Counted from the first letter of the stretch, positions 38,236 through 50,350 are shown. The stretch is 64,000 nt of DNA from Betaproteobacteria bacterium (GCA_016708825.1 JADJEZ010000011.1:82171-146170); one strand, 5' to 3'. Notes: generated by a model from the letters alone, not told the origin. Made by a program: numbers and translations.

Positions 38236-38312
38236 CGGGGTGTAGCTTAGCCTGGTAGAGCGCTACGTTCGGGACGTAGAGGCCGGAGGTTCGAATCCTC
38301 TCACCCCGACCA
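38236..38312 (+). tRNA. tRNA-Pro (anticodon CGG)
   Basis: Cloverleaf folded by hand: acceptor CGGGGTG/CACCCCG, D stem GCTT/GAGC, anticodon stem CTACG/CGTAG with loop TTCGGGA, T arm GGAGG-TTCGAAT-CCTCT, encoded CCA. Confidence 0.95.
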
Positions 38313-38336: not shown

Positions 38337-39658
38337 TCACTCGAGGCCGTAGCGCTTTATCTTCCTCCACAGCGTGGACTTGTCGATGCCGAGGATCTCG
38401 GCGGCGCTCGCCCGGTTGCCCTGCGTCTCCCTCAGCGTCTTCGCGATGAAGTAGGCCTCGATCTCCTCGAGGCTCTGCGGCTCGATCAGCTCCACGGCCC
38501 GGCCCGGGCCGGTGCCCTCCTGCGCGAGCCCCGGCGGCAGCACGTCGGTGTCGAGCATGTCGGTCTCGGTGAGGACGATCATCGACTGGATGGCGTTCTC
38601 GAGTTCCCGAGCGTTGCCGGGCCAGTCGTGGCGCATGAGGGCCGCGAGCGCCCGCGTGGTGATCCCCTTCACGGGCTTGCCCAGGCGCACCGAGTGGCGC
38701 GCCAGGAAATAATTGGCCAGGAGGGGAATGTCGCTGCGCCGGTCGCGAAGCGGAGGCATCACGATTTCCACGATGCGCAGGCGATAGTAGAGATCCATCC
38801 GGAAAGCGCCGCTTTCCACGAGCGCGGGCAGGGGACGGTTGGTCGCGGCGATGAGGCGAACGTCGGCTCGCCTCGGTTCGGTGTCGCCCATCCGGTAGAA
38901 CGTTCCGTCCTGGAGCACGCGCAGGAGCTTCGCCTGGAAGGCGGGCGAGGCGTTGTTGACCTCGTCGAGGAAGAGGGTCCCGTGGTCGGCGGACTCGAAG
39001 AGCCCGGCCTTCGCGCGGTCCGCCCCGGTGAAGGCGCCGCGCTGGTAACCGAAGAGCTCGCTCTCGATCACGTTCTGTGCGCGACCACCTCCTTGCCGGT
39101 TCCCGACTCCCCGGTGATGAGCACGCAGCAGTCGTAGCCAGCCGACGCCCGCACCATGCGGCGCACCTGCTCGACGGCCGCGTTCTTGCCGACCAGGCCG
39201 TCGAGGTCGGCGTAGGCGCGGTTCGTCTCGCGCAAGCGGATGTTCTCGCGATTGAGCTGGTGGAACTCGAGCGCCCGGTCGACTATGCGGCGCAGGTCAT
39301 CGGGCTCGAAGGGCTTGCGCAGGTAGTCGTAGGCGCCGCCCTTGAGCGCTTCCACTGCCGATTCGACCGTGGCGTGCCCCGTGAGCAGGATCACCTGCGT
39401 CATCGCGTCGCGCGCCTTCGCGAAACGCAGCACCTCCAGGCCGCCGATGCGCGGCATGCGCAGGTCCGTGACCACCACCGCGACCTCGTGGTCCTCGAGG
39501 TAGCCGAGCGCGTCCTGGGAGCTGTCGACTTCCACCACTTCCGCAACGGCCGTCGCAAGGACCTCGCGGATCATGCGACGCATGGCGGGATCGTCCTCGA
39601 CCAGCAGGACGGTCGCGCGGGCGGCGCCCTGCTGCGCCTTGGCGATGCTCTCGTCCAC
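38337..39658 (-). pseudogene. NtrC-family sigma54-dependent response regulator with internal approximately 65-nt deletion in the AAA+ domain
   Basis: Receiver (LLVEDDPAMRRMI.., VVTDLRMP, KPF) and Walker A (ITGESGTGKEVVA) lie in ORF 39068..39658. ESELFGY, GAFTGA, GTLFLDEV, RVIAATN-like, GNARELEN and a Fis-type HTH lie in ORF 38337..39071. The roughly 22 residues that normally separate GKE.. from ..ESELFG are missing and the frame changes at about 39068. Confidence 0.8.
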
Positions 39659-39662
39659 GGTC

Positions 39663-41219
39663 CTAGGCCGCGAGGGGGAGCGTTATCACGAAACGCGCGC
39701 CGCCCTGGTAGGCGGCGTCGCAGTGAATGCTGCCGCCGATCCGCGAGACGATGGAATGGCTGATCGCGAGGCCAAGCCCCGTGCCGGCGCTCTCGGTCTT
39801 GGTGGTGAAGAACGGGTCGAAGAGCTTGCCGCGGTTCTCCGGGGCGACGCCCGGCCCGTTGTCCGTGACGGAGACGACCGCGAAGCCGCCCTCGACCGCG
39901 GAAGAGACGTCCACGCGGGGGCTGGACGCCGCCGCGGCTGCCTGCACCGCGTTCACCATCACGTTCACGAGCACGATGTCGAGCTGGCCCGGGCCGCCGC
40001 GCACGAGGAGCTCTCCCTGCACGTCCGTTTCGACCGCGGCGCTGTAGCGCCGTCCCTGGCAGTTGGCGACCGCCTCCACGGACTCCCGGATCAACGCGTT
40101 GATCTCGCACGTCTCCGCGTGGCACACGTCCCGGCGCGCATAGGCAAGGAGGTCGTCGACGATTCGCGCGCAGCGCCGTGTCTCCCCATGGATGACGCTC
40201 GCATACTCGGCGCGTTTCGCCGCGTCGGCGTTGCCTTCATTGAGGAGCTTCGCGTAGCCCAGGATCGTGCCGAGCGGCGTGTTGAGCTCGTGGGCGACGC
40301 CGGCGGCGAGCTGGCCCATGGCGACCAGCTTCTCGGCCTGCTGCGAGATTTCCTCGAGCCGCCGCCAGTCGGTGATGTCCTGCAGGATGATCGCCGCGCT
40401 TGCCTGCGCGGAACGCGGATTCTGGCGGAAGAAGGTGAGGTTGAGCGATACCTGTCGCACCCGCGCGCCGATGTTGAGCGCGAGCACCTGGTTGCTCACC
40501 TGCTGCTCGTAGAGGAACGCCTCGCGCAGCACCTCGCGACCCGGCTCGTCGGATTCCAGGAGGTCGAAGAGGTTGGCCCCGGCCAGTGCTTCGCCGGAAA
40601 CCTCGAAGAGCGCCTCGGCCTGGCGGTTGGAGAGCGTGACGCGGAAATCGCCGTCCACGGCGAGCAGCGCGCCCGGCAGCCCCTGCAGGATGGCCTCGTG
40701 GCGGTTGCGTTCGGCGATGATGGACAGTTGCGCCTGCTCCATCTCGCCGAAGAGCGATCCCAGGTTTCCCGCGAGGGTGTTGTATTCCGTCTCGAGGGGC
40801 GCGAGGAGCGGGCGCGCGACGCCCTGCAGCCGGATCGGCTCGAGCGATCCCTCGTTGGCGTGGTGTACGGCTTCGTGCAGCGCGGCGAAGCCCCGGGCGT
40901 ATCCGCGGAGAACAACCGCCGCACCGGCCAGGACGATGCCGGCGACCACGAGGGCGGCGAGCAAGGCATCGTGGGGCGTTCCCAGTCCGTGAAACGCCGC
41001 GAGCAGTGCCGCAATCGACAGGGATGCGACGGCGCCGAGGGCGACTCCCGCGAAGACGCGCGACCCGGCTCCGGCATGCGCGCGCACGCGCGGCCCGTCG
41101 TCGTGTTCGCTTTCCGCCGGATTCGCCGTGATCTCCACGCTGCCTGTTCCTTCCCCATTCGCGCTCTCGCCGAAACACTCCGGCGCGAGGCGCAGCACTT
41201 CCCTCGGGGATGATGCCAC
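39663..41219 (-). CDS. PAS-domain sensor histidine kinase (partner of the NtrC-type regulator)
   Basis: Two TM helices with a very short loop, a PAS-like region, H-box LAAGVAHELNTPLG, and N/G boxes (NVMVNAVQA, DNGPGV, GTGLGLAIS). Intact 518-aa ORF with uncertain start. Confidence 0.8.
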   Translation of the reverse strand: MASSPREVLRLAPECFGESANGEGTGSVEITANPAESEHDDGPRVRAHAGAGSRVFAGVALGAVASLSIAALLAAFHGLGTPHDALLAALVVAGIVLAGAAVVLRGYARGFAALHEAVHHANEGSLEPIRLQGVARPLLAPLETEYNTLAGNLGSLFGEMEQAQLSIIAERNRHEAILQGLPGALLAVDGDFRVTLSNRQAEALFEVSGEALAGANLFDLLESDEPGREVLREAFLYEQQVSNQVLALNIGARVRQVSLNLTFFRQNPRSAQASAAIILQDITDWRRLEEISQQAEKLVAMGQLAAGVAHELNTPLGTILGYAKLLNEGNADAAKRAEYASVIHGETRRCARIVDDLLAYARRDVCHAETCEINALIRESVEAVANCQGRRYSAAVETDVQGELLVRGGPGQLDIVLVNVMVNAVQAAAAASSPRVDVSSAVEGGFAVVSVTDNGPGVAPENRGKLFDPFFTTKTESAGTGLGLAISHSIVSRIGGSIHCDAAYQGGARFVITLPLAA

Positions 41220-41268
41220 GGACCCGACCGGGGCCCTTGATCCCGGTCAGGTCCGCGCCTTCCGCGCT

Positions 41269-42461
41269 TCAGAAGATGAATTGCAGGCCGAGCGAATACT
41301 GCTTGTAGTCGCGCTGCGACGGGTTGACGGGATTCTGCACGTCGAAGCGGACGTCGGCGTACTCGAAGCTCAGCTTGAGCAGCTGGCCGTCGATGAGGTA
41401 GTGGAAGCCGACGCCGTCCCACTTCTGGTCGCGATACCCGAGGGGAGGTTGTACTCGGAGCGCTCGTGCCGCCCGAACACCTGGAGCCGCCCGGGGCCGA
41501 TCTTGCTGGGCAGCAGGTAGCCGGCCTTCACGTACCAGCCCTCGAGGTCGGTGGTGGTCGGCAGGTTCGGGTCGGGCGAGAGCCCGAAATGCGCCTTGCC
41601 GGTGTCGCGCCGCATCACGGCGGCCGATGCGGTGATGGTGCCGGCCGCGGTCGGCTGCTCGTAGAAGATGTCGGCGGTCCACGCCTTGGTGTCCTTCGCG
41701 TCGTCCTTGCCGACGAAGTCGCCGTAGGCCACCTTCTGCTGGTAGTCGTAGGCCGCGCCGATGGTGAGCACGCGCCTCGTGCCGAGGTAGGTGCCGCGGT
41801 AGCCGAAGTCGTACTCCGGGTCGAGCAGGCTCACGTGGACTCGCGCGGTCAGGCGAGGCGAGTCCTTCACCACCTCGTTGCCCTCGCGGCCGTCGGAAGC
41901 CATGACGCGGTACTGGAACTTCGCGTCGGCCAGGTTGCCCCACATCGCCACGCCCGTGTCGCGGCTGCCGCCCCAGGGCGTGTACGACAGCACCTCCGCG
42001 CGGTCCATGGTGAGTGCGTCGAAGCACGCCTCGAGGTTCTCGCGCGTGAACGTGTTCTTGAACCGCCCCACGATGAATCGCATCGCGTCGCTGTGGTCGA
42101 CCGTGATGTACGCGTCGCGGAAGAAGATGCTCTTGTCGTCGTCGCCTCCCCGGCTGTCGGCGGGCGCGTCGAGGTTCGCGTAGAAGCCCACGAGGTCGTT
42201 GTACTGCCCGGAAAAGGTGAGCCGGTTGCGGCGCAGGAAGAAGTCCGTGGAGCGGCCCGAGTCCGACGAGGAGGTGTAGCCGCGGTCCTGCGCCCAGCCC
42301 TGCACGGAGTAGTTGAACGTGAGACTGCCTTCCTTGCCGAAGGTGAGCGTCGGGCCCGCGGCCGCGGCGCCGGCGAAGCCCGCGAGCGCGAACGCGCAGG
42401 CCGTCGCGAGGCGGGCAGTGCGGCGCTTGCCGCGGTTCGATTCGATGGTGGCACGCTTCAT
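41269..42461 (-). CDS. outer-membrane porin (porin O/P-like beta-barrel), frame broken near 41443
   Basis: Signal peptide (..FALAGFAGAAAA), FFLRRNRLTFSG, alternating beta-strand pattern. After the shift the sequence is ..GYRDQKWDGVGFHYLIDGQLLKLSFEYADVRF..YSLGLQFIF*, ending in an aromatic residue. AGGAGGAGG RBS. Confidence 0.7.
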
Positions 42462-42483: not shown

Positions 42484-42988
42484 TCACTTCTTGTACGCGT
42501 TCGCGAGCTGCGCCGCGTTTTCGGACTTGTGGCAGTTCGCACACAGCTCGGAGGACCGGGGCCGCGGGTCCTTCACCATCTCCGTGTGCGCCAGTTCCTT
42601 CTTGATCAGCCGCGCGTTGCCCTTGTGGCAGCCGGCGCAGGAGTTGTCGACGCTCTTGTGGTCGGTGTGCCACTTGCGTGCTCGGGGCCGCGGCGCGGGT
42701 GCCGTTGTGGCACTTGAAGCAGGACGAGGCGCCCATGCCGCAGGCGTTCGCCTCGGCGATCGGGGAGTAGGTGCGAAGCGCGTCGCGAACGTCCGCGATG
42801 GCCTCCGCTCCCCATCCCGCGGGTTGCGCGCGGCTCGCCTCGGGGCCGTCGAACCGCTCCGGGCTCGATGCCGCCAGCGACCACGCGAGCGCCACGGCTG
42901 CGCATGCGGCGGTTCCCGCAGCGGTGCGCAGGATGCCGCGCGCGAGTCCGCGAAGCCTGTCGACCAGGGTCGTCTTGCTTTCCTTCAT
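42484..42988 (-). CDS. triheme c-type cytochrome, membrane/signal-anchored, frame broken near 42685
   Basis: Hand translation gives CFKCH, then after a 1-nt shift ..ARKWHTDHKSVDNSCAGCHKGNARLIKKELAHTEMVKDPRPRSSELCANCHKSENAAQLANAYKK*. That is three CxxCH motifs. The N-terminal hydrophobic segment is AAGTAACAAVALAWSLAA. A GGAGGA RBS precedes the ATG, which overlaps the upstream stop. Confidence 0.75.
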
Positions 42989-43242
42989 TTCTCGTTCCTC
43001 CGGGGTGGTGGCTCGGCTGCCGCCTTTTGCTCGGCGGCGGACTGGATATCGCTTTCGCTCAATGCGCTCACGCAGGTGCAGGTGGGCCTGTCGCCCTTGA
43101 ATTTCAGGCGCCGTTTCTTCACGGCCGGGCCGGACGCCGCCTCGCCCTCCCGGGCCGCCCCGGCATCGCGCTTGGGCGCTTCCTCGGCGTGGGCCGCCGG
43201 CGCGAGCATCGCGGCGAGCAGCAACCAGCTGGAAATTCTCAT
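42985..43242 (-). CDS. small secreted protein (85 aa) with CTC motif
   Basis: ATG 43242 follows GGAGG. Signal peptide MRISSWLLLAAMLAPAAHA, then a charged, low-complexity mature part containing ..DRPTCTCVSAL... No family recognised. Confidence 0.5.
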   Translation of the reverse strand: MRISSWLLLAAMLAPAAHAEEAPKRDAGAAREGEAASGPAVKKRRLKFKGDRPTCTCVSALSESDIQSAAEQKAAAEPPPRRNEK

Positions 43243-43279
43243 GGGGCCTCCGGTGAACAAGGTCCGACCCGCGATCATC

Positions 43280-43295
43280 AGCAGATTGCGTGCCA
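43280..43295 (-). promoter_or_regulatory. sigma54 (-24/-12) promoter P3, upstream of small protein-triheme-porin
   Basis: Minus strand TGGCACGCAATCTGCT versus consensus TGGCACG-N4-TTGCW. It lies about 40 nt upstream of ATG 43242. Confidence 0.7.
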
Positions 43296-43382
43296 CTGGC
43301 GCGGACCGTTTTATAAACAGGGAGTTAATGCGCGCCGCCGCCATCACGGCATTGCATTACCCCCTTCGGCGTCCGGGGGCTT

Positions 43383-44642
43383 TCAATTTGCAACCGCGCG
43401 CGCATCGCTTCCCGTCGCGGCGGGCGCAGCGACTTCCACGTCCTCCAGGTAATAGCGCGCGTTCACGGCCCGGGCGAGCGCTTCGTCCAGGGTCGCGCGC
43501 GTTGCGTCGTCGAGCCCGGGGTTGCGACGCCGCATGTCGGCGAACATGCGCTCGTAGTGTTCGCCGGGAGCGACTTCCGTTCGCAGCCGCAGGCGCCATT
43601 GGCCGGGCGCGACCTGGACATCGAATTGCATCTCGTGGCGGGCATCGGGCGCGAGGCGCGTGTCGGCGATTTCCTTGTCGAGCCCCACCGTGAGCTGCCG
43701 GCCGATCGTGTGGTCCCCGACGAGGACGTGCGTTCCCCGGCCGAGCAGGTAGACGCGAACGAGGATCCGGGGAACGACATAGGTGGGCAGGTAATGCCCG
43801 GCGTCCCGGTTGGCGAGGACGACGGTGACGCGAAGCCGGCCCTCGTCCACGCGCGAAACGGAGATCTCGCGGCCGAGCGCGCCGCGCACCATCTGCGCGT
43901 CATGGATGCCGCGCCAGAGGTGGCGCCTCCCAGGCATGTGGCACGACTGGCAGTGGCGGCCTTCGCGCGCGTGGCGGCTGGCGCGCCATTCCTCGTAGGT
44001 GTTTTCGAGGAGCTTGCCGTTCACCTGGCGGCCGTCGGGTGCGAACTGGTGGCAGGTCGAGCAGAACCGGCTGTCGGAGAACGCGGCCTCGGCGACGAAT
44101 CCCCCATGGGGTTGGCGTTCGCTTCCGGCACCGGTGGTCGCCGCGATCGCGGGCCCGAAGCGCTGGTGCCGGCGCACGTGGCAGGCCGCGCACACCAGGC
44201 CCCGCAGGTGCAGGTCGCCGGACACCCAGGGCGGCGGCGCGGACGCGGGCGCGTTGGGCCAGCCGCGTTCTATCGCCATGAGTGCCTTCTGCTCGGCGAG
44301 CGGCGCGTGGCAGCGCAGGCAGTCGTTGCCGTGTTGCTGGTCCATGGTGCGCAACTGCCAGAGGATGCCGGGGCCCATGGCCCGGCTGTGCAGGCTCGTC
44401 TTCCAGTCGGCGAGCTGCGCGGCGTGGCACACGCCGCAGGCTTCCGGCGAGAGGGCCGCTTCTTCGGGAGTGTGCGTGGCGGGAGGATCGCCTTGCGGCG
44501 CGAGGGGCTGCGCCCAGTGGCGCGCGAGAAACGCTGCGATGGCCTTGTCGGCCCGGTGCTCACGGAAAACCGCGATCCCGGCCCACAGGGCAAGGCCGGC
44601 GAGGGCGGCAAGCGCCGCCCCGCCGGCCCGGCGCAGGTTCAG
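43383..44642 (-). CDS. pentaheme c-type cytochrome with non-heme C-terminal domain
   Basis: Five CxxCH motifs (CGVCH, CLRCH, CAACH, CSTCH, CQSCH) after a TM/signal anchor (AALAALAGLALWAGIAVF), followed by about 170 aa without heme sites (..ANRDAGHYLPTY..). There is no ATG/GTG/TTG in frame near the anchor, so the start (CTG 44642/44636?) is unresolved. Confidence 0.75.
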   Translation of the reverse strand: MNLRRAGGAALAALAGLALWAGIAVFREHRADKAIAAFLARHWAQPLAPQGDPPATHTPEEAALSPEACGVCHAAQLADWKTSLHSRAMGPGILWQLRTMDQQHGNDCLRCHAPLAEQKALMAIERGWPNAPASAPPPWVSGDLHLRGLVCAACHVRRHQRFGPAIAATTGAGSERQPHGGFVAEAAFSDSRFCSTCHQFAPDGRQVNGKLLENTYEEWRASRHAREGRHCQSCHMPGRRHLWRGIHDAQMVRGALGREISVSRVDEGRLRVTVVLANRDAGHYLPTYVVPRILVRVYLLGRGTHVLVGDHTIGRQLTVGLDKEIADTRLAPDARHEMQFDVQVAPGQWRLRLRTEVAPGEHYERMFADMRRRNPGLDDATRATLDEALARAVNARYYLEDVEVAAPAATGSDARAVAN

Positions 44643-46135
44643 CCGCAGGGGTTGCCTCCGGGACCGCCGCCTCCGCCGCTGTCGCTCGCGCCGGTGCCGC
44701 CGCGCTTGTACGACTTGTCGTCGAGGATGATCTTGTTGGCGTGGATCGCGTAGGGGTTCACGATCGTGCGCCTGGCCACGTTCGCGGGATTGGCGGCCGG
44801 GCGGAAGAACGACTTCACGTCCGTGCGCCACGGGGAATCGGCCGGCAGGATCGGGTTGCCGGTCGAGTCGGGCAGGCTGGAAAGCGAATGCCATTCGACC
44901 ATGGCGCCGTCATAGAAGCGCACGGGGTAGCCCATGATGCCCGCGGAAGCGAATCCCGTGATCATCGCGCGGAAGGTCGTCTCGCAGTAGGAATAGACCA
45001 CGTCCCCGGCCTGGTAACCCGCACCGTCGCCGACGCCGCCGTAGGTGGCGTCGACGAAGCGGTAGCCGCCCGCGTCCGCGCCGCCGCTCATGTACGTCGC
45101 GATCGCCGCCTTCGGCTTGTAGGAAAAGCCCTTCGTCGAATCGAGCAGGTTGGTGAACTGGAGCTGCAGCGTGCCGCGGGGATGACCCTGGCGCGAGCCG
45201 CTGTTCTGGAACGTGCGCATGTAATCGTAGCCCGTGGGCGGCGCGCAGACCGCCGCGCCGCAGGCGGTGTACCCGGAGTCGCCCGCCTCGAGGCGCTCGC
45301 CGGCGCTGAACTGGCCGACGCTGCGCGCATCCCAGATGAACACGCCGTCGTCGCGCACGTTCACGTCCGTGGAGGGAAGCACCGCGAGCAGGTCCTCGAA
45401 GGTCGCCTGCAGGGCGGTGTTGTCGACGGGGATGTCCTTCACGCTCGCGGTCCCGTTGTTGGGCGGCGTGCTCGCCGTCGCCGTGAAATCCGCGGCCGCC
45501 ATGCCGTTGGTGTTGATCCACTGGTTGCCGCCGTTCAGGACGGCGACGTTGCGCTTGTCGACGCCCCAGTAGCGCAGCGCGTACCAGCAGCGGCCCTGCG
45601 CCATCGCGTTGCCGGTACTGCCCGTTCCCATTCCGCAGACGATCATGTCGTTGGCGGGATCGATGCCGTACTTCTTCAGGAGCGCGTCCATCGACGCCCC
45701 GTCCGGCACCATGCTCACGGTCTCGATCACGCCGTTGGAGCGCGTCTGGACCCATTCGGAGGAGGGCGAGAGGTAGGTGAAGACCGTGGAGTTGTTCGGC
45801 TTCACGTACTCCGCGCCGGCGGGCCCCGTCGTGGCCTGGAAGATCACGAGCTTGCCGCTGATGCCGGCCGGGCGGTTGGCCCCCCAGTTAGAGATCCAGC
45901 GCTTGAGGGTGGCGGCGGTGACGAGGCCGTTCACGTTCTCCTCGTAGTTGTCCGCGGACGCCTGCGCGATCGTGTGCGGCGTGTTCACGGTGATCTTCAC
46001 CACGTTGCCGGCGGACGTGTCCTCGCGGCCGCCGCCCCCGCCGCAAGCCGCCAGTGCGAGGCAGGTCGCGGCGGCGAGGGCCATGCGCGGATTCACGATT
46101 TCACCCAGGGTGCTGCCGTGATGTTGCCTCGTCAT
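44639..46135 (-). CDS. tandem-rhodanese sulfurtransferase-like lipoprotein with Gly-rich C-terminal Cys tail
   Basis: Lipobox ..ATCLALAAC. Domain 1 is ..DMIVCGMGTGS..RCWYALRYWGVDKRNVAVLNGGNQW. Domain 2 is ..VFIWDARS..GHPRG..VVYSYCETTFRAMITG..GYPVRFYDGAMVEW, with a CxxxxR active-site-like loop. The protein ends ..GGGGGPGGNPCG*. ATG 46135 is preceded by GAAGGAGG; ATG 46159 is also possible. Confidence 0.75.
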   Translation of the reverse strand: MTRQHHGSTLGEIVNPRMALAAATCLALAACGGGGGREDTSAGNVVKITVNTPHTIAQASADNYEENVNGLVTAATLKRWISNWGANRPAGISGKLVIFQATTGPAGAEYVKPNNSTVFTYLSPSSEWVQTRSNGVIETVSMVPDGASMDALLKKYGIDPANDMIVCGMGTGSTGNAMAQGRCWYALRYWGVDKRNVAVLNGGNQWINTNGMAAADFTATASTPPNNGTASVKDIPVDNTALQATFEDLLAVLPSTDVNVRDDGVFIWDARSVGQFSAGERLEAGDSGYTACGAAVCAPPTGYDYMRTFQNSGSRQGHPRGTLQLQFTNLLDSTKGFSYKPKAAIATYMSGGADAGGYRFVDATYGGVGDGAGYQAGDVVYSYCETTFRAMITGFASAGIMGYPVRFYDGAMVEWHSLSSLPDSTGNPILPADSPWRTDVKSFFRPAANPANVARRTIVNPYAIHANKIILDDKSYKRGGTGASDSGGGGGPGGNPCG

Positions 46136-46197
46136 TTTCTGGCCTCCTTCACTGTGCATTCCGGTTGTCGCGGGTCAAGCCCGTCCGTACATGCGCT

Positions 46198-46213
46198 AGC
46201 ACATTGCGTGCCG
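46198..46213 (-). promoter_or_regulatory. sigma54 (-24/-12) promoter P1, upstream of rhodanese lipoprotein-pentaheme
   Basis: Minus strand CGGCACGCAATGTGCT, with GG and GC correctly spaced. It lies about 65 nt upstream of ATG 46135. Confidence 0.7.
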
Positions 46214-46457
46214 AACCCGATTCCCGAAGGAAAACAAGCCCTTGAGTATTGCCGGGCGGACGCGGCCCGTTGCACATTTCATCGGCCGGGGCGGTCCGTC
46301 GACATTTTGCAAGTTCCGGATCGCGCCTTCCGCGAGACGCGCGGCCGATTGCATTATCCAATCCGCCCATGACGTGGTGCGCCCCGATTGCGACATGCAC
46401 GCGCGTCGCATTCTCCCTGCCCGCGCGCCGCGCAGGGAAACCACGCTTCGGGGCCCG

Positions 46458-46473
46458 CGGCACGCAACTTGCT
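46458..46473 (+). promoter_or_regulatory. sigma54 (-24/-12) promoter P2, upstream of the TusA-like/YeeE operon
   Basis: Plus strand CGGCACGCAACTTGCT, about 40 nt upstream of the 46513 start. Divergent from P1. Confidence 0.7.
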
Positions 46474-46512
46474 ACCTTGCTTCACGGGTAGACTGCACGC
46501 AGGTGGGCAAGG

Positions 46513-46902
46513 GTGTTGAACAGAATGATCGGTCCGTTTGGCTGGTTCCTGCCGTCCCTTCGCGGCCGCGGCGATGCACGCTCCGGCCCGGCGAAGACCG
46601 TGGAGATCCCCGGGCACGGCGCGATGGTCGCCGACAACTCGGTCGATCTCACGGGCGCGACATGCCTGCGGACCAACCTCGTCACGAAGCGGGCGCTCGA
46701 CGCGGCGTTGCCCGGCTCGGTGATCGAGATCGTCTCGGACAACCTGAGTTCGGTGGAAACGATCCCCTTCATGCTGGCGGGACACAACTGCGTCCACCTG
46801 GGAACGCTCCACCTGGAGAGCGGCTGGAAGATCTATGCGCGCAAGGGCGCCGGCGAGGGCGCGTGCGACGGACCTGACGACGAAGGAGGCAAGGCAAGAT
46901 GA
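46513..46902 (+). CDS. TusA/SirA-fold protein with non-canonical cysteine motif
   Basis: ..VDLTGATCLRTNLVTKRALDAALPGSVIEIVSDNLSSVETIPFMLAGHNCVHL.. follows the TusA pattern but has C-L-R-T where TusA has C-P-x-P. An extra N-terminal extension of about 40 aa is present. The stop overlaps the yeeE ATG (ATGA). Confidence 0.6.
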   Translation: MLNRMIGPFGWFLPSLRGRGDARSGPAKTVEIPGHGAMVADNSVDLTGATCLRTNLVTKRALDAALPGSVIEIVSDNLSSVETIPFMLAGHNCVHLGTLHLESGWKIYARKGAGEGACDGPDDEGGKAR

Positions 46903-48348
46903 GTGAAGGCGTGGTCGACACCACCGAAGGGGTGGGTTCGGCGGTGGGCCGGGCGAATGCCCTGCGGGCTTCCGCCGTGGTGGGATTCTTCGTGCTGGTC
47001 ACGGCGTGGACGTTCGCCGTCGATACGCGCTACCTCTATTTTTCCGCCTACCTGTGGTTCGGGTTCGTCTACGGCATGAGCCTGCAGTACGGCAGGTTCT
47101 GCATGGCCTCGGCGATCCGCGACCTCTTCGCCGTGGGCGTGCCACGCATGGCGGTGGGCATCATGATCGCCGTGGTGCTCTTCAGCCTCGTGTCCGCCGC
47201 CGTCACCGTCGCCGGCAAGAGCACCTTCCACGCCTCCCCCATCGGCCTGTACTCGGTGGTCGGCGGCGCGATCTTCGGGTTCGGCATGGTGTTCACCGGC
47301 GGCTGCGCCACCGGGTCCTCTACAAGACGGGGAGGGCAGCGTCTCGGCGCTCCTCGTGGTGCTCTCGCTCAGTTTCGCGCAGGCGTACTTCGTGGACATC
47401 GGGGGCGCGCTCGACGCGCTGGTTCCCGCCTCGTGGGCCGCCTCGGCCGCCGCGAAGGGGATGCCGGCCGCGGTGTCGGCCACCCAAGGCTGGTACGACC
47501 AGTTCCTCGCGGGCTACGTGTGGGACCTGAAGAGCCTCACCGTGGGCGAGGCGCTCGGCTTCACGAGCCCGATGGCGAAAGCCTTCATCGGCAACTCCCT
47601 CATCAACGCGATCCTGCCGGCCATCGTGATCCTCGCGGTGATCTACGCCATCTGGTACCGGAAGGGCTACCTGCGCAAGCGCAAGGACGGCGCGCGCGGT
47701 GCCTCGGTGGAGCTGGCCGGCTGGTGGAGCATGGTCACCGCCTCGAAGCGCACGGCGATCGCGGGCCTCATCCTGGGCGTGGCCGCCGGCCTGCAGATGT
47801 GGGTGGTGCAGACCCTGCAGCAGAAGTTCGGCATCTCGAACGCGGGCGAGCTGCTCCAGGCGCTCGGCCATACCGAGGGGCTGAGCCTGCAGGACACGGT
47901 CTTCGACCCCGGCTACTTCTACGTGACGACCCAGGAGGCGCAGGGCGCGGCCTGGGTGCTCGCGAAGCTGGGCATCGACATCACGGACAACATCTTCTTC
48001 GGGCTGGAGAACGGCATTCCCAACCCGCTCTACAACCCGGTGCTGTGGATGTCGTTCTCGGTGATCGGCGGGGCGATGGTGATGGCGCTGCTCGCCAACG
48101 AGTTCAAGCTGAAGATGCCCACGCGCGAGATAGCGTTCTGGGCCATCTCCGGCGGCATCCTCATGGGCATCGGCGCGCGCGTCGGCCTGGGCTGCAACAT
48201 CGGCGCGTTCTTCGCGACGGTCACCAACGGCGACCCCTCGGGCTGGCTCTTCGGGCTGGGCATGACGGGCGGCGGCTACATCGGGGTGAAGTTCTTCAAC
48301 TGGTGGATCGAGCGCAAGATGGCAAAGGACACGCCGCTCGGGTTCTAG
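46899..48348 (+). CDS. YeeE/YedE-family sulfur-compound (thiosulfate-type) transporter, frame broken near 47317
   Basis: Three conserved Cys segments: GRFCMASAIRD, FTGGCATGS and GLGCNIGAF. Multi-TM. ORFs 46899.. and 47356..48348 join as GGCATGS/LYKTGEGSVSALLVVLSLSF if a C is restored in tCCtc. At about 483 codons it is longer than the E. coli-type YeeE I remember. Confidence 0.75.
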
Positions 48349-48387
48349 TTTCACCGGGCGGTATCGAAATCACGGCAACGGAGGCAA

Positions 48388-48648
48388 GTGGAAATGGCAG
48401 CCAAGTTCGAGAAGCTGGAAGAGGGCAACTACCAACTGGATGTCCAGGGCTATGTCTGCCCGCATCCGCAGATCTACGCGAAGAAGGCGCTGGAGAAGCT
48501 GAAGTCGGGCGATACGCTGCAGCTGCTGTTCGACAACCCGGCCTCGGGCGAGTCGATCCACGCGATGTGCGAGACGGAGGGCAACGACATCGTCGAGCGG
48601 GTGCAGGACGCCGGCAAGACGATGCGCTGGACCATCCGCAAGCACTGA
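48388..48648 (+). CDS. TusA-family sulfur carrier (YeeD-like)
   Basis: ..YQLDVQGYVCPHPQIYAKKALEKLKSGDTLQLLFDNPASGESI.. has the canonical CPxP motif. Located immediately after yeeE. Confidence 0.8.
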   Translation: MEMAAKFEKLEEGNYQLDVQGYVCPHPQIYAKKALEKLKSGDTLQLLFDNPASGESIHAMCETEGNDIVERVQDAGKTMRWTIRKH

Positions 48649-48667
48649 GACCGGCGCGAACGCACCC

Positions 48668-48976
48668 ATGCGCCTCGGCATCGTCGCCACGCACGAATCG
48701 GCGGGCCCGCAGCTGGCCGGGCTCGCCGCCGCCGCCGCGGCACGCGGCTGGCCCCTGCGCTGCTTCCTCACCGATTCCGGCGTGAAGCTCGCCGCGAACG
48801 GCGCGCTCCTCGCGCTCGCGCAATCCGGCAAGCTCCGGCTCGACGTCTGCGAGCACAGCTGGCAGCACCTGGGGATGGGAGAAGCGCCCGAGGGCGCCAC
48901 CCTCGGCAGCCAGTTCCAGAACGCGGAACTGGTGCGCGAGTGCGACCGCGTCCTGGTGCTCCCGGGCGGCGCATGA
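48668..48976 (+). CDS. DsrE/TusD-like small protein
   Basis: [50 protein letters not shown].. has a DsrE-fold-like beta-alpha pattern with a Cys after the second strand block. Short at 102 aa. Confidence 0.45.
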   Translation: MRLGIVATHESAGPQLAGLAAAAAARGWPLRCFLTDSGVKLAANGALLALAQSGKLRLDVCEHSWQHLGMGEAPEGATLGSQFQNAELVRECDRVLVLPGGA

Positions 48977-49220
48977 AGCGCATCCTCGTGATCGCGCGCC
49001 ACAACCAGGCCGAGGCGCTGCGGGTCGCGGCGGGCCTCACGCTCTTGAGCGACCCGGTGCAGGTCGCGGTGCTGGGTGCATTCGAGGACACGCCCGCCAT
49101 CGCGGAGCACCGCGAACTGCTGGAGTTCGCCGAGGTGCCCTGCGAGGTCGTGGACGATCAGCCCTGGGCGAGCGGCTCGCGGGCGCCATCCACGAGGCCG
49201 ACGTGGTCTACCTGATATGA
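48973..49220 (+). CDS. DsrF/TusC-like small protein, frame broken near 49165
   Basis: MKRILVIARHNQAEALRVAAGLTLLSDPVQVAVLGAFEDT..CEVVDDQP, then in the next frame LGERLAGAIHEADVVYLI*. ATGA overlaps at both ends. Confidence 0.4.
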
Positions 49221-49521: not shown

Positions 49522-50350
49522 ATGTTCCGGAATATTTCCTTCTTCCTCGCGAGTCTCTGCCTGTCCGTCGCGCCGGCCCACGCGACCGGGTACCTTGAAA
49601 CCCCGCAACCGCGTTCCTTCCAGTCCGGTATCGGGGTCGTGAGCGGATGGCACTGCACCGCCACGACGATCCAGGTTCGGATCGACGATGCCGCGCCCTT
49701 GAGCGCCGGCACCCGCACGCAACGCAACGATACCGTTCCGGTCTGCGGTCACGCCGACACGGGCTTTTCGCTTCTCGTGAATTTCAATTCGCCTCGACCC
49801 GGCGAGACCGCACCGCATCGTGGTTTACGCGGATGGCCTCGAGTTCGCACGCGTCGACGAGTTCCACGCCCGCAATCTCGGGGCCGACTTCCTGACGGGG
49901 CGGCAGTCGATGACGCAGCTCCTCAACTTTCCGAACGTCGGGGAGCGGATCCACCTCGGCTGGTCGGAGGAGGCCCAGAACTTCTCGATCGCCGGCAGGG
50001 ACGCCGCTCCCTCGCTTTCGGGCGTCTACTACGGCGCCGAATTCGTCGACCAGTTCGCGGCGTGCTCCACGGCGCCCGCCCAGGCGCCACGAAAGGCCCA
50101 GTTCTCGGTGGCGATCGCGGAGGGCAGGCTGACGCTCGCGTCGCTGCTGGACGACGGCACGCGATGCACGCTTTCCGCACCGGGCAGGCTCGAGCCGGAC
50201 GGCTACTTCCGCACCTTCGTCGATGAGACCCTGTCGAGCAGCTGCGTCTTCTACAGCGGGGGTTTCCGGCTTGCCGTCAATGGCGAACGTCTCGAGGGAA
50301 GAAGCGTCGACGGCGTCTGCCAGAATCATCGCGCGGTGGGCGCCAAGTAG
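49522..50350 (+). CDS. secreted hypothetical protein, frame broken near 49800
   Basis: Signal peptide MFRNISFFLASLCLSVAPAHA, then ..GIGVVSGWHCTATTIQVRIDD..VCGHADTGFSLLVNFN. It continues in ORF 49820..50350 (..IVVYADGLEFARVDEF..). No family recognised. Confidence 0.5.

Follow-up and report, generated by a model that had tools for sequence, protein, structure and literature searches.

A putative self-contained sigma-54 regulon with paired TTGCA-type boxes in a porin, rhodanese, cytochrome and sulfur-relay gene cluster of sulfur- and iron-oxidising Proteobacteria

We analysed a 64,000-nt stretch of a Betaproteobacteria bacterium genome (GCA_016708825.1, JADJEZ010000011.1:82171-146170), hereafter the window, which has 69% G+C and within which all coordinates are counted. 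It carries a cluster of genes for a rhodanese-like lipoprotein, multiheme cytochromes, an outer-membrane porin and a TusA/YeeE/DsrE-type sulfur relay, and three sites in this cluster, P1, P2 and P3, had been read in an initial annotation as sigma-54 promoters with shared upstream motifs for an adjacent NtrC-type activator. Our results suggest, with a probability that we put at about 85%, that these three sigma-54 (RpoN) promoters form a small self-contained regulon under a kinase and an NtrC-type bacterial enhancer-binding protein (bEBP) encoded at the cluster end. The elements occur non-randomly, keep their position and orientation across about 80 species, are exclusive to the cluster and are linked to the kinase/regulator pair.

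All three sites contain a common 13-base pattern, GGCACGCAANNTGCT, which matched the window three times and was found in none of 100 dinucleotide-preserving shuffles (0.00 matches expected). At each of them the GG and GC doublets are exactly 10 nt apart, the sequence departs by one or two mismatches from TGGCAC-N5-TTGCW, and the predicted transcription start lies 27-52 nt before a start codon, on the strand of the gene that follows (for P1, a start at about 46187 and an ATG at 46135). No sigma-70-like promoter was found in 42900-46700, which covers both intergenic regions, and an Rfam scan of 38-52 kb returned only a tRNA and no family in either intergenic region. The sequences and coordinates first given for P1, P2 and P3 were all correct, and their reading as sigma-54 promoters is supported by the GG-N10-GC geometry, the strand, the distance to the start codon and the conservation of the sites. 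From these features we infer the start sites and the dependence on sigma-54 at all three.

An alignment-based scan from the rhodanese-like protein, which has hundreds of homologues, gave 80 related loci at one genome per species (L001-L080). The window and L001-L013 are referred to below as the window's clade, and loci outside it as distant. P1, P2 and P3 are all present in every one of the 12 close loci of sufficient length. In the close loci P2 is divergent, about 240-340 nt upstream of the rhodanese gene, and P3 lies about 2.83 kb downstream; P1 is found about 80 nt upstream of the same gene (12 closest loci), L010-L012 having it instead at about 140-160 nt. In distant loci the ancestral promoter of which P2 is the orthologue, termed Pt, stands before tusA, about 3.1 kb upstream of the rhodanese gene (59 instances). 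A P3-type site at about +2.8 kb from the rhodanese gene start, upstream of the small and triheme genes, was found in 63 instances, and a P1-like site is also present in some Gammaproteobacteria. The consensus over about 150 orthologous sites reads TGGCACG-N5-TGCTT.

Two dyad-like boxes, TTGCA-N3-TGNAA, precede each promoter, spaced 37-41 bp apart, and of the two halves of a box one is strong and the other weak (Table 1). P1 and P3 share one layout, in which the boxes start at -100/-99 and -62 from the GG with the strong halves outermost, and P2 and Pt share another, with boxes at -110 and -71, both in direct orientation. The enhancer boxes that had been proposed for all three promoters are supported, with the refinement that P1 and P3 have one arrangement and P2 another, and the motif itself is better described as TTGCA-N3-TGNAA. 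The motifs on which that proposal was built are where it had placed them (TTGCAC at 46270, TTGCAT at 43352, TTGCAA at 46307 and 43388, and the 9-mer ATTGCATTA at 43351-59 and 46348-56), and the arithmetic of its 58- and 94/95-nt offsets is right. Moreover, each of its TTGCA-type motifs is the core of an invariant block at a fixed distance from the GG, and the ATGCAC that it had noticed near P2 is the right half of the P2 proximal box.

The alignment of orthologous intergenic regions, which the initial annotation had recommended, showed conservation of both the promoters and the TTGCA motifs. Upstream of P3 it contains the sharply bounded invariant blocks GGTTGCAAATTGAAAG, GGGTAATGCAATGC and TAACTCCCTGTTT; upstream of P1, the invariant blocks CTTGCAATTTGAGAGG, GGTGGAATGTGCAACGC and CAAnnnnTTGTTTT; and nearer P2, TTGGATTATGCAATCG and GTGCATGTCGCAATCG. 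In the P1/P2 intergenic DNA these blocks stand out from a mean column identity of 58%. Among the P3 instances, 54 of 63 have TTGCA at -100..-96 and 57 of 63 have TGCAA at -65..-56, and among the Pt instances TTGCA is found at about -109 in 38 of 59 and at about -69 in 43 of 59; these instances share a phylogeny, and the counts are not independent events.

The boxes could also be re-found from distant genomes. Position weight matrices (PWMs) trained solely on loci outside the window's clade and then run on the window had their top matches at 43375-96, 43349-63, 46346-64 and 46267-81; the P3 distal box scored 24.3, and the next score, 8.1, belongs to a match overlapping the same box on the opposite strand. 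The window contains just two copies of the hexamer TTGCAA, one about 95 nt upstream of P1 and the other about 95 nt upstream of P3. The sequence TTGCAWWWTGCAA has nine matches in the window at up to three mismatches, five of them in the two upstream regions of about 100-250 bp, and the only two matches with a single mismatch both lie within promoter upstream regions. These are the P3 distal and P2 distal boxes, which agree with TTGCAWWWTGCAA at 12 of 13 positions; the remaining boxes keep only the TTGCA half. More speculatively, ATTGCG, which lies opposite the promoter core GGCACGCAAT, could be a further half-site of the regulator overlapping the -24 element.

The combination of boxes and promoter is confined to the cluster. 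Across 1.5 Mb of loci we counted 286 sigma-54-like matches, 117 with both boxes and 169 without both, and all of the 117 are at the Pt, P1 or P3 positions, bar one extra in L060. That site (L060:5735, plus strand), in a gammaproteobacterial metagenome-assembled genome, lies about 1 kb upstream of the usual tusA promoter and is possibly an additional member of the regulon there. When the three promoter regions were aligned in search of a repeat or a recent duplication, no similarity was found past the functional motifs; the upstream regions share nothing beyond the elements and are therefore not copies of a repeat.

At P3 the distal box shares part of its sequence with the 3' end of the pentaheme gene, whose last codons and stop (43383-85) read GCA AAT TGA (...Ala-Asn-stop). 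This overlap recurs in close taxa and in many distant taxa, and the stretch reads both as protein and as operator. Between the P3 boxes, just past the pentaheme stop, there is also a CCCCC-N10-GGGGG inverted repeat (43360-43379), conserved in the clade and showing no covariation; at the same spot, Thiobacillus-type loci have GATTGCA...TGCAATC, a second ATTGCA paired with the proximal box. At the start of the predicted P1 leader (46170-46185) we observed a conserved block, GACGGGCnnGACCCGC. It was considered as an RNA hairpin and rejected, the stem being only 4 bp long and showing no covariation.

The best candidate for binding the boxes is encoded within the cluster itself. In nearly all loci of sufficient length the last two genes of the cluster are those of the kinase and the regulator, and this pair is the only regulator consistently linked to the cluster, in about 70 loci. 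The regulator, which is intact at 462 aa in L083 and L001, falls under every named equivalog cut-off (AtoC, 412 bits against 714; NtrC, 409 against 558.6; ZraR, 353 against 760; LuxO, 345.9 against 800), and by its sequence it is an NtrC-family member without a named equivalog assignment. Its closest solved relatives in the PDB are Aquifex NtrC1/NtrC4, LuxO and ZraR. In 52 orthologues of at most 62% identity, the helix-turn-helix (HTH) segment AAEILGIDKSTLWRK(I/V)KRY is at least 90% conserved, and columns conserved to at least 90% make up 74% of the HTH, compared with 41% of the receiver and 53% of the AAA+ domain. This high conservation is consistent with an unchanging operator core. The adjacent NtrC-type activator that had been postulated is thus encoded, with its kinase, at the cluster end, and the HTH is its most conserved part; from this linkage and conservation we infer that it is the protein that binds the boxes. 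The recognition helix was also compared with the residues of LuxO (PMC11407668), which revealed only a family-wide likeness, and this comparison was not used as evidence.

The two transmembrane helices of the kinase are about five residues apart and leave almost no periplasmic loop, and its PAS domain is cytoplasmic, which makes the membrane or the cytoplasm the probable place of signal sensing. The kinase and regulator genes are possibly read from P3. The 130-nt gap before the kinase gene was scanned and contained no recognisable promoter or terminator. A conserved stem-loop, ACCGGG...CCCGGT, followed by GTGGCATCATC, is present in this porin-kinase gap at about 41225-41265, and it may act as an attenuator or a processing site and so determine whether transcription from P3 extends into the kinase and regulator genes.

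Between the boxes and the promoter, P1 and P3 each have a conserved block that reads YAAnnnnTTG(T)TTT and has one or two mismatches to the integration host factor (IHF) consensus WATCAANNNNTTR; distant loci show a signal, a.c....tg.t, at -31..-21. These blocks are putative IHF sites. In the mechanism that we propose, sigma-54 RNA polymerase would wait in a closed complex on the GG/GC elements, and the kinase would phosphorylate the regulator on sensing, in the membrane or the cytoplasm, a cue that probably has to do with sulfane sulfur or a related chalcogen. The phosphorylated regulator would oligomerise on the paired TTGCA-N3-TGNAA boxes and, at P1 and P3, the DNA would be bent by the IHF-like element that lies some 25-30 nt before the GG, a bend that would let the regulator ATPase reach the polymerase for ATP-driven opening of the promoter. 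P1 would then express the rhodanese lipoprotein and the pentaheme cytochrome; P3 the small protein, the triheme cytochrome and the ExtI-type porin, possibly on into the kinase and regulator; and P2 the TusA/YeeE/TusA/DsrE-like sulfur-relay operon. As predicted here, these transcription units match the three that had been proposed at the outset. Stop/start overlaps between the small and triheme genes, and apparently between the rhodanese and pentaheme genes, suggest translational coupling within units.

Table 1. Predicted regulatory elements and genes of the cluster (positions within the window; box distances counted from the promoter GG).
Feature	Position	Strand	Description
P1, predicted sigma-54 promoter (-24 GG / -12 GC)	46198..46213	-	CGGCACGCAATGTGCT; predicted to serve the rhodanese-like lipoprotein and pentaheme unit
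P1 IHF-like block	46229..46246	-	CAAnnnnTTGTTTT; between boxes and P1; invariant CAA / TTG / TTT columns
P1 proximal box	46270..46282	-	ATGAAATGTGCAA; strong half TGCAA starts at -62; invariant GGAATGTGCAA block; matched by distant-taxa PWM
P1 distal box	46300..46312	-	TTGCAAAATGTCG (TTGCAATTTGAGA in relatives); starts at -100; invariant TTGCA..TTG block
P2, predicted sigma-54 promoter	46458..46473	+	CGGCACGCAACTTGCT; predicted to serve the TusA-YeeE-TusA-DsrE-like operon (plus 275-aa protein and NnrS); ATG at 46525
P2 proximal box	46388..46400	+	TTGCGACATGCAC; starts at -71; invariant GATTGCGACATGCAC block
P2 distal box	46349..46361	+	TTGCATTATCCAA; starts at -110; invariant GATTGCATAATCCAAT block; top PWM match; 1 mismatch to TTGCAWWWTGCAA
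P3, predicted sigma-54 promoter	43280..43295	-	TGGCACGCAATCTGCT; predicted to serve the small protein, triheme and ExtI-type porin unit; ATG at 43242
P3 IHF-like block	43309..43327	-	TAACTCCCTGTTT; between boxes and P3; from alignment and anchored consensus
P3 proximal box	43352..43364	-	GGGGGTAATGCAA; strong half TGCAA starts at -62; invariant GGGTAATGCAATGC block
P3 distal box	43381..43393	-	TTGCAAATTGAAA; starts at -99; invariant GGTTGCAAATTGAAAG block; 1 mismatch to TTGCAWWWTGCAA
P2 unit, first genes	46525..49215	+	TusA-like, YeeE/YedE-type transporter, TusA-like, two DsrE-like small proteins
Rhodanese-like lipoprotein, 498 aa	44639..46135	-	First gene of the P1 unit
Pentaheme c-type cytochrome	43383..~44640	-	Five CxxCH; Pfam MtrC/MtrF domain; start codon uncertain, near the rhodanese stop
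Small secreted protein, 85 aa	42985..43242	-	First gene of the P3 unit
Triheme c-type cytochrome	42484..42988	-	Three CxxCH across two frames; intact at 168 aa in L083
ExtI-type outer-membrane porin	41269..42461	-	Pfam Porin_O_P; NCBIfam porin_ExtI
Sensor histidine kinase	39663..41219	-	Two transmembrane helices; cytoplasmic PAS, HisKA, HATPase
NtrC-type response regulator, proposed activator	38337..39658	-	Receiver, sigma-54 AAA+ with GAFTGA, Fis-type HTH (Pfam)
tRNA gene	38236-38309	+	66.7 bits; immediately beyond the regulator gene, bounds the cluster

Several observations weigh against such a regulon. The loose sigma-54 consensus is not over-represented in the window: GGCACG-N5-TGC was found 3 times (1.7 expected), and TGGCACG-N4-TTGCW, at up to two mismatches, 8 times (8.9 expected). 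No IHF-like block was found at P2 in the intergenic alignment of the window's clade. Most boxes have only one strongly conserved half-site, and because of this the dyad is in part our own reading of them; the invariance of the P3 distal box could partly be coding constraint, because pentaheme codons overlap it. The activator as written in this assembly cannot work, because 67 nt of its AAA+ domain are missing and the frame is shifted. Finally, the literature that we searched contained no transcript, footprint or genetic data for any member of the cluster.

The initial annotation had named comparable matches at random frequency across the genome as what would speak against it; within the window, the core GGCACGCAANNTGCT is found three times with none expected, and the loose consensus stays at chance level. 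Since the generic consensus is not over-represented, the weight rests on the shared core, on the placement and orientation of the sites upstream of genes, and on conservation. The chance level of the loose consensus is also what would favour reading the three sites and their motifs as coincidence or as a dispersed repeat of no regulatory role. We consider this effectively refuted already: the shared core has no expected matches, position, strand and spacing are kept across Beta- and Gammaproteobacteria, the three regions have no extended similarity, and matrices from distant genomes recover the boxes. It is also improbable, if less extremely so, that the promoters are real and the boxes are bound by another protein, such as a bEBP encoded elsewhere or a nucleoid or accessory factor. 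The single strong half-site of most boxes would fit such a binder, and the recognition helix motif of the regulator, S-T-L-W-R-K-I, is generic for the NtrC family, so that the helix does not by itself predict TTGCA. Against it, no regulator other than the kinase/regulator pair is consistently linked to the cluster, the paired boxes lie at about -60 to -110 from the GG, which are typical bEBP enhancer positions, their combination with the promoters is confined to this cluster, and the HTH is the part of the regulator that is most conserved.

The regulon might also be decaying in this organism, its three promoters being relics that are no longer fired. This reading stems from a comparison of the window with five independent short-read contigs (L081-L085), whose rhodanese protein is identical and whose DNA identity is 99.4-99.7%. 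Relative to these contigs the window has seven indels that disrupt a reading frame: a 67-nt deletion in the AAA+ domain at 39076/39077, which leaves the regulator gene split and frameshifted; a 1-nt deletion in the porin gene at 41445; a 2-nt deletion in the triheme gene at 42675; frameshifting deletions in the YeeE gene at 47318 and 47328-47332; a 4-nt deletion in a DsrE-like gene at 49159; and a 1-nt insertion in the gene for the 275-aa protein at 49793. They all lie within 38.3-49.8 kb, the regulon part, and none falls in 50.4-56.1 kb (5.8 kb beyond the regulon), which would fit decay, as would the 67-nt deletion, a lesion atypical of homopolymer error. However, the independent assemblies have every gene intact, several indels remove one nucleotide from a run of C or G, as errors in a long-read consensus typically do, and P1-P3 and their boxes are unmutated relative to the near-identical contigs. 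If the indels were spread evenly over the 17 kb that were compared, the chance of all seven falling in the regulon part would be about 0.06, a rough estimate that is not decisive and that we set among the points against decay. Long-read consensus error and true decay of the regulon are thus the two readings of the indels, and we consider decay unlikely, albeit a good deal less so than a different binder of the boxes.

The genes of the putative regulon are themselves widely conserved. With the proteins of an intact relative as tblastn queries, the recurring order was tusA, yeeE, tusA, dsrE-like, dsrE-like, rhodanese, pentaheme, (small), triheme, porin, kinase, regulator, and this 12-gene order is kept in essentially every sufficiently long locus (80 loci). 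The carriers are Beta- and Gammaproteobacterial sulfur and iron oxidisers, including Thiobacillus, Rubrivivax, Sideroxydans, Gallionella, Sulfuricellaceae, Hydrogenophilus, Azohydromonas, Thiogranum, Thiohalomonas and others; Thiobacillus, Rubrivivax, Sideroxydans, Thiogranum and Hydrogenophilus make up most of the 80. Collinearity of the whole cluster is the rule in most taxa; the window's clade departs from it by an inversion of the tusA-to-dsrE module, which creates the divergent P1/P2 region. Past the DsrE-like genes the plus strand has two further small genes and NnrS.

The porin, in its intact L083 copy, matches the porin_ExtI model NF040900 over its full length at 330 bits (cut-off 150). 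The rhodanese reaches 105 bits for ExtH (cut-off 200), the pentaheme 31 for ExtKL (cut-off 250), and the triheme only weakly resembles ExtS, far below the model cut-off; the pentaheme, checked for membership of MccSep/ExtKL, had no match among PDB sequences. Because the porin passes its cut-off and the others are only weakly alike, the cluster is a relative, not an orthologue, of extHIJKL of Geobacter. The C-terminus of the rhodanese-like lipoprotein (44639-44700) has a Gly-rich linker and then N-P-C-G(G), invariant in 18 of 18 aligned homologues. We take this end to resemble the C-terminal GGCGG cysteine arm of SoxY, and by this analogy it suggests a carrier arm for covalently bound sulfur.

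The textbook sigma-54 two-component regulon is NtrB/NtrC with the glnAp2 enhancer, in which the NtrC operator is TGCACC-N5-GGTGCA. The system described here has the same parts, namely a kinase, a regulator with receiver, AAA+ and Fis-type HTH, a -24 GG / -12 GC promoter, a pair of activator sites about 100 bp upstream and, as proposed, DNA bending between enhancer and promoter. It differs in the regulator, whose 409 bits fall short of the NtrC cut-off of 558.6, in the operator, TTGCA-N3-TGNAA, and in its targets, which point to sulfur or chalcogen handling rather than nitrogen assimilation.

In its operator it comes closer to LuxO/qrr of Vibrio, where an NtrC-family bEBP likewise acts on sigma-54 promoters (PMC10328515, PMC11407668). 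The LuxO sites defined by chromatin immunoprecipitation, ttgcaWWWtgcaa (ttgcaaaatgcaa, ttgcaatttgcaa and ttgcattttgcaa; PMC10328515), differ from the best boxes here (TTGCAAATTGAAA and TTGCATTATCCAA) at one of 13 positions, although most of our boxes, unlike LuxO sites, keep one strong half-site. The regulator is not a LuxO orthologue (345.9 bits against 800), has its own cognate kinase in place of the LuxU phosphorelay, and has protein-encoding operons rather than small RNAs as putative targets. Because it passes no named equivalog cut-off, the likeness to LuxO sites hints at its probable mode of action and not at its family.

For sulfur oxidisers, our search found no literature on this cluster or its regulation, only analogues (TspR, ExtHIJKL and YeeE/TusA work). 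TspS/TspR, a sigma-54 two-component system controlling the sox-II cluster of Acidithiobacillus caldus (PMC6335251), is also encoded beside periplasmic sulfur-oxidation genes, which it activates through an upstream activating sequence (UAS). The TspR UAS, TGTCCCAAATGGGACA, is unrelated to the TTGCA boxes, however, and its targets are Sox genes behind one promoter, versus three promoters here. Among gene clusters the closest analogue is extHIJKL of Geobacter sulfurreducens, which encodes a rhodanese lipoprotein, the ExtI porin, a small protein and the pentaheme ExtKL/MccSep, and which has been tied to the uptake and reduction of selenite and tellurite; ExtKL/MccSep is a polysulfide reductase essential for elemental-sulfur respiration (PMC6148476, PMC5877670, PMC13510729). 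Both clusters have an ExtI-type porin, a rhodanese-like lipoprotein, a pentaheme, a small periplasmic protein and a further small cytochrome. In contrast to extHIJKL, the cluster in the window stays far below the cut-offs of the ExtH, ExtKL and ExtS models, has another gene order and is attached to a TusA/YeeE/DsrE relay operon. Moreover, the ext clusters of Desulfuromonadales have a divergent LysR-type regulator, whereas the system here is a sigma-54 two-component one.

All together, the results make it reasonably probable that this is a self-contained sigma-54 regulon not described before, that its operator, TTGCA-N3-TGNAA, is LuxO-like, and that it switches an Ext-like module of porin, rhodanese and cytochromes coupled to a YeeE/TusA/DsrE relay. 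The regulon would be widespread and its proposed mechanism is ordinary, a textbook assembly of sigma-54 promoter, paired enhancer, IHF-like bend and two-component bEBP. Its value is a precise map of operators and promoters for a 12-gene cluster shared by at least 80 sulfur- and iron-oxidising species of environmental importance, and this map yields ready-made reporter constructs and a testable boundary of the regulon. The PAS kinase gives a handle on the inducing signal of a system of ExtI-type porin, rhodanese and multiheme cytochromes. If the proposed regulon is real, the module could be a dedicated route by which these bacteria take up and process extracellular zero-valent sulfur, polysulfide or selenium.

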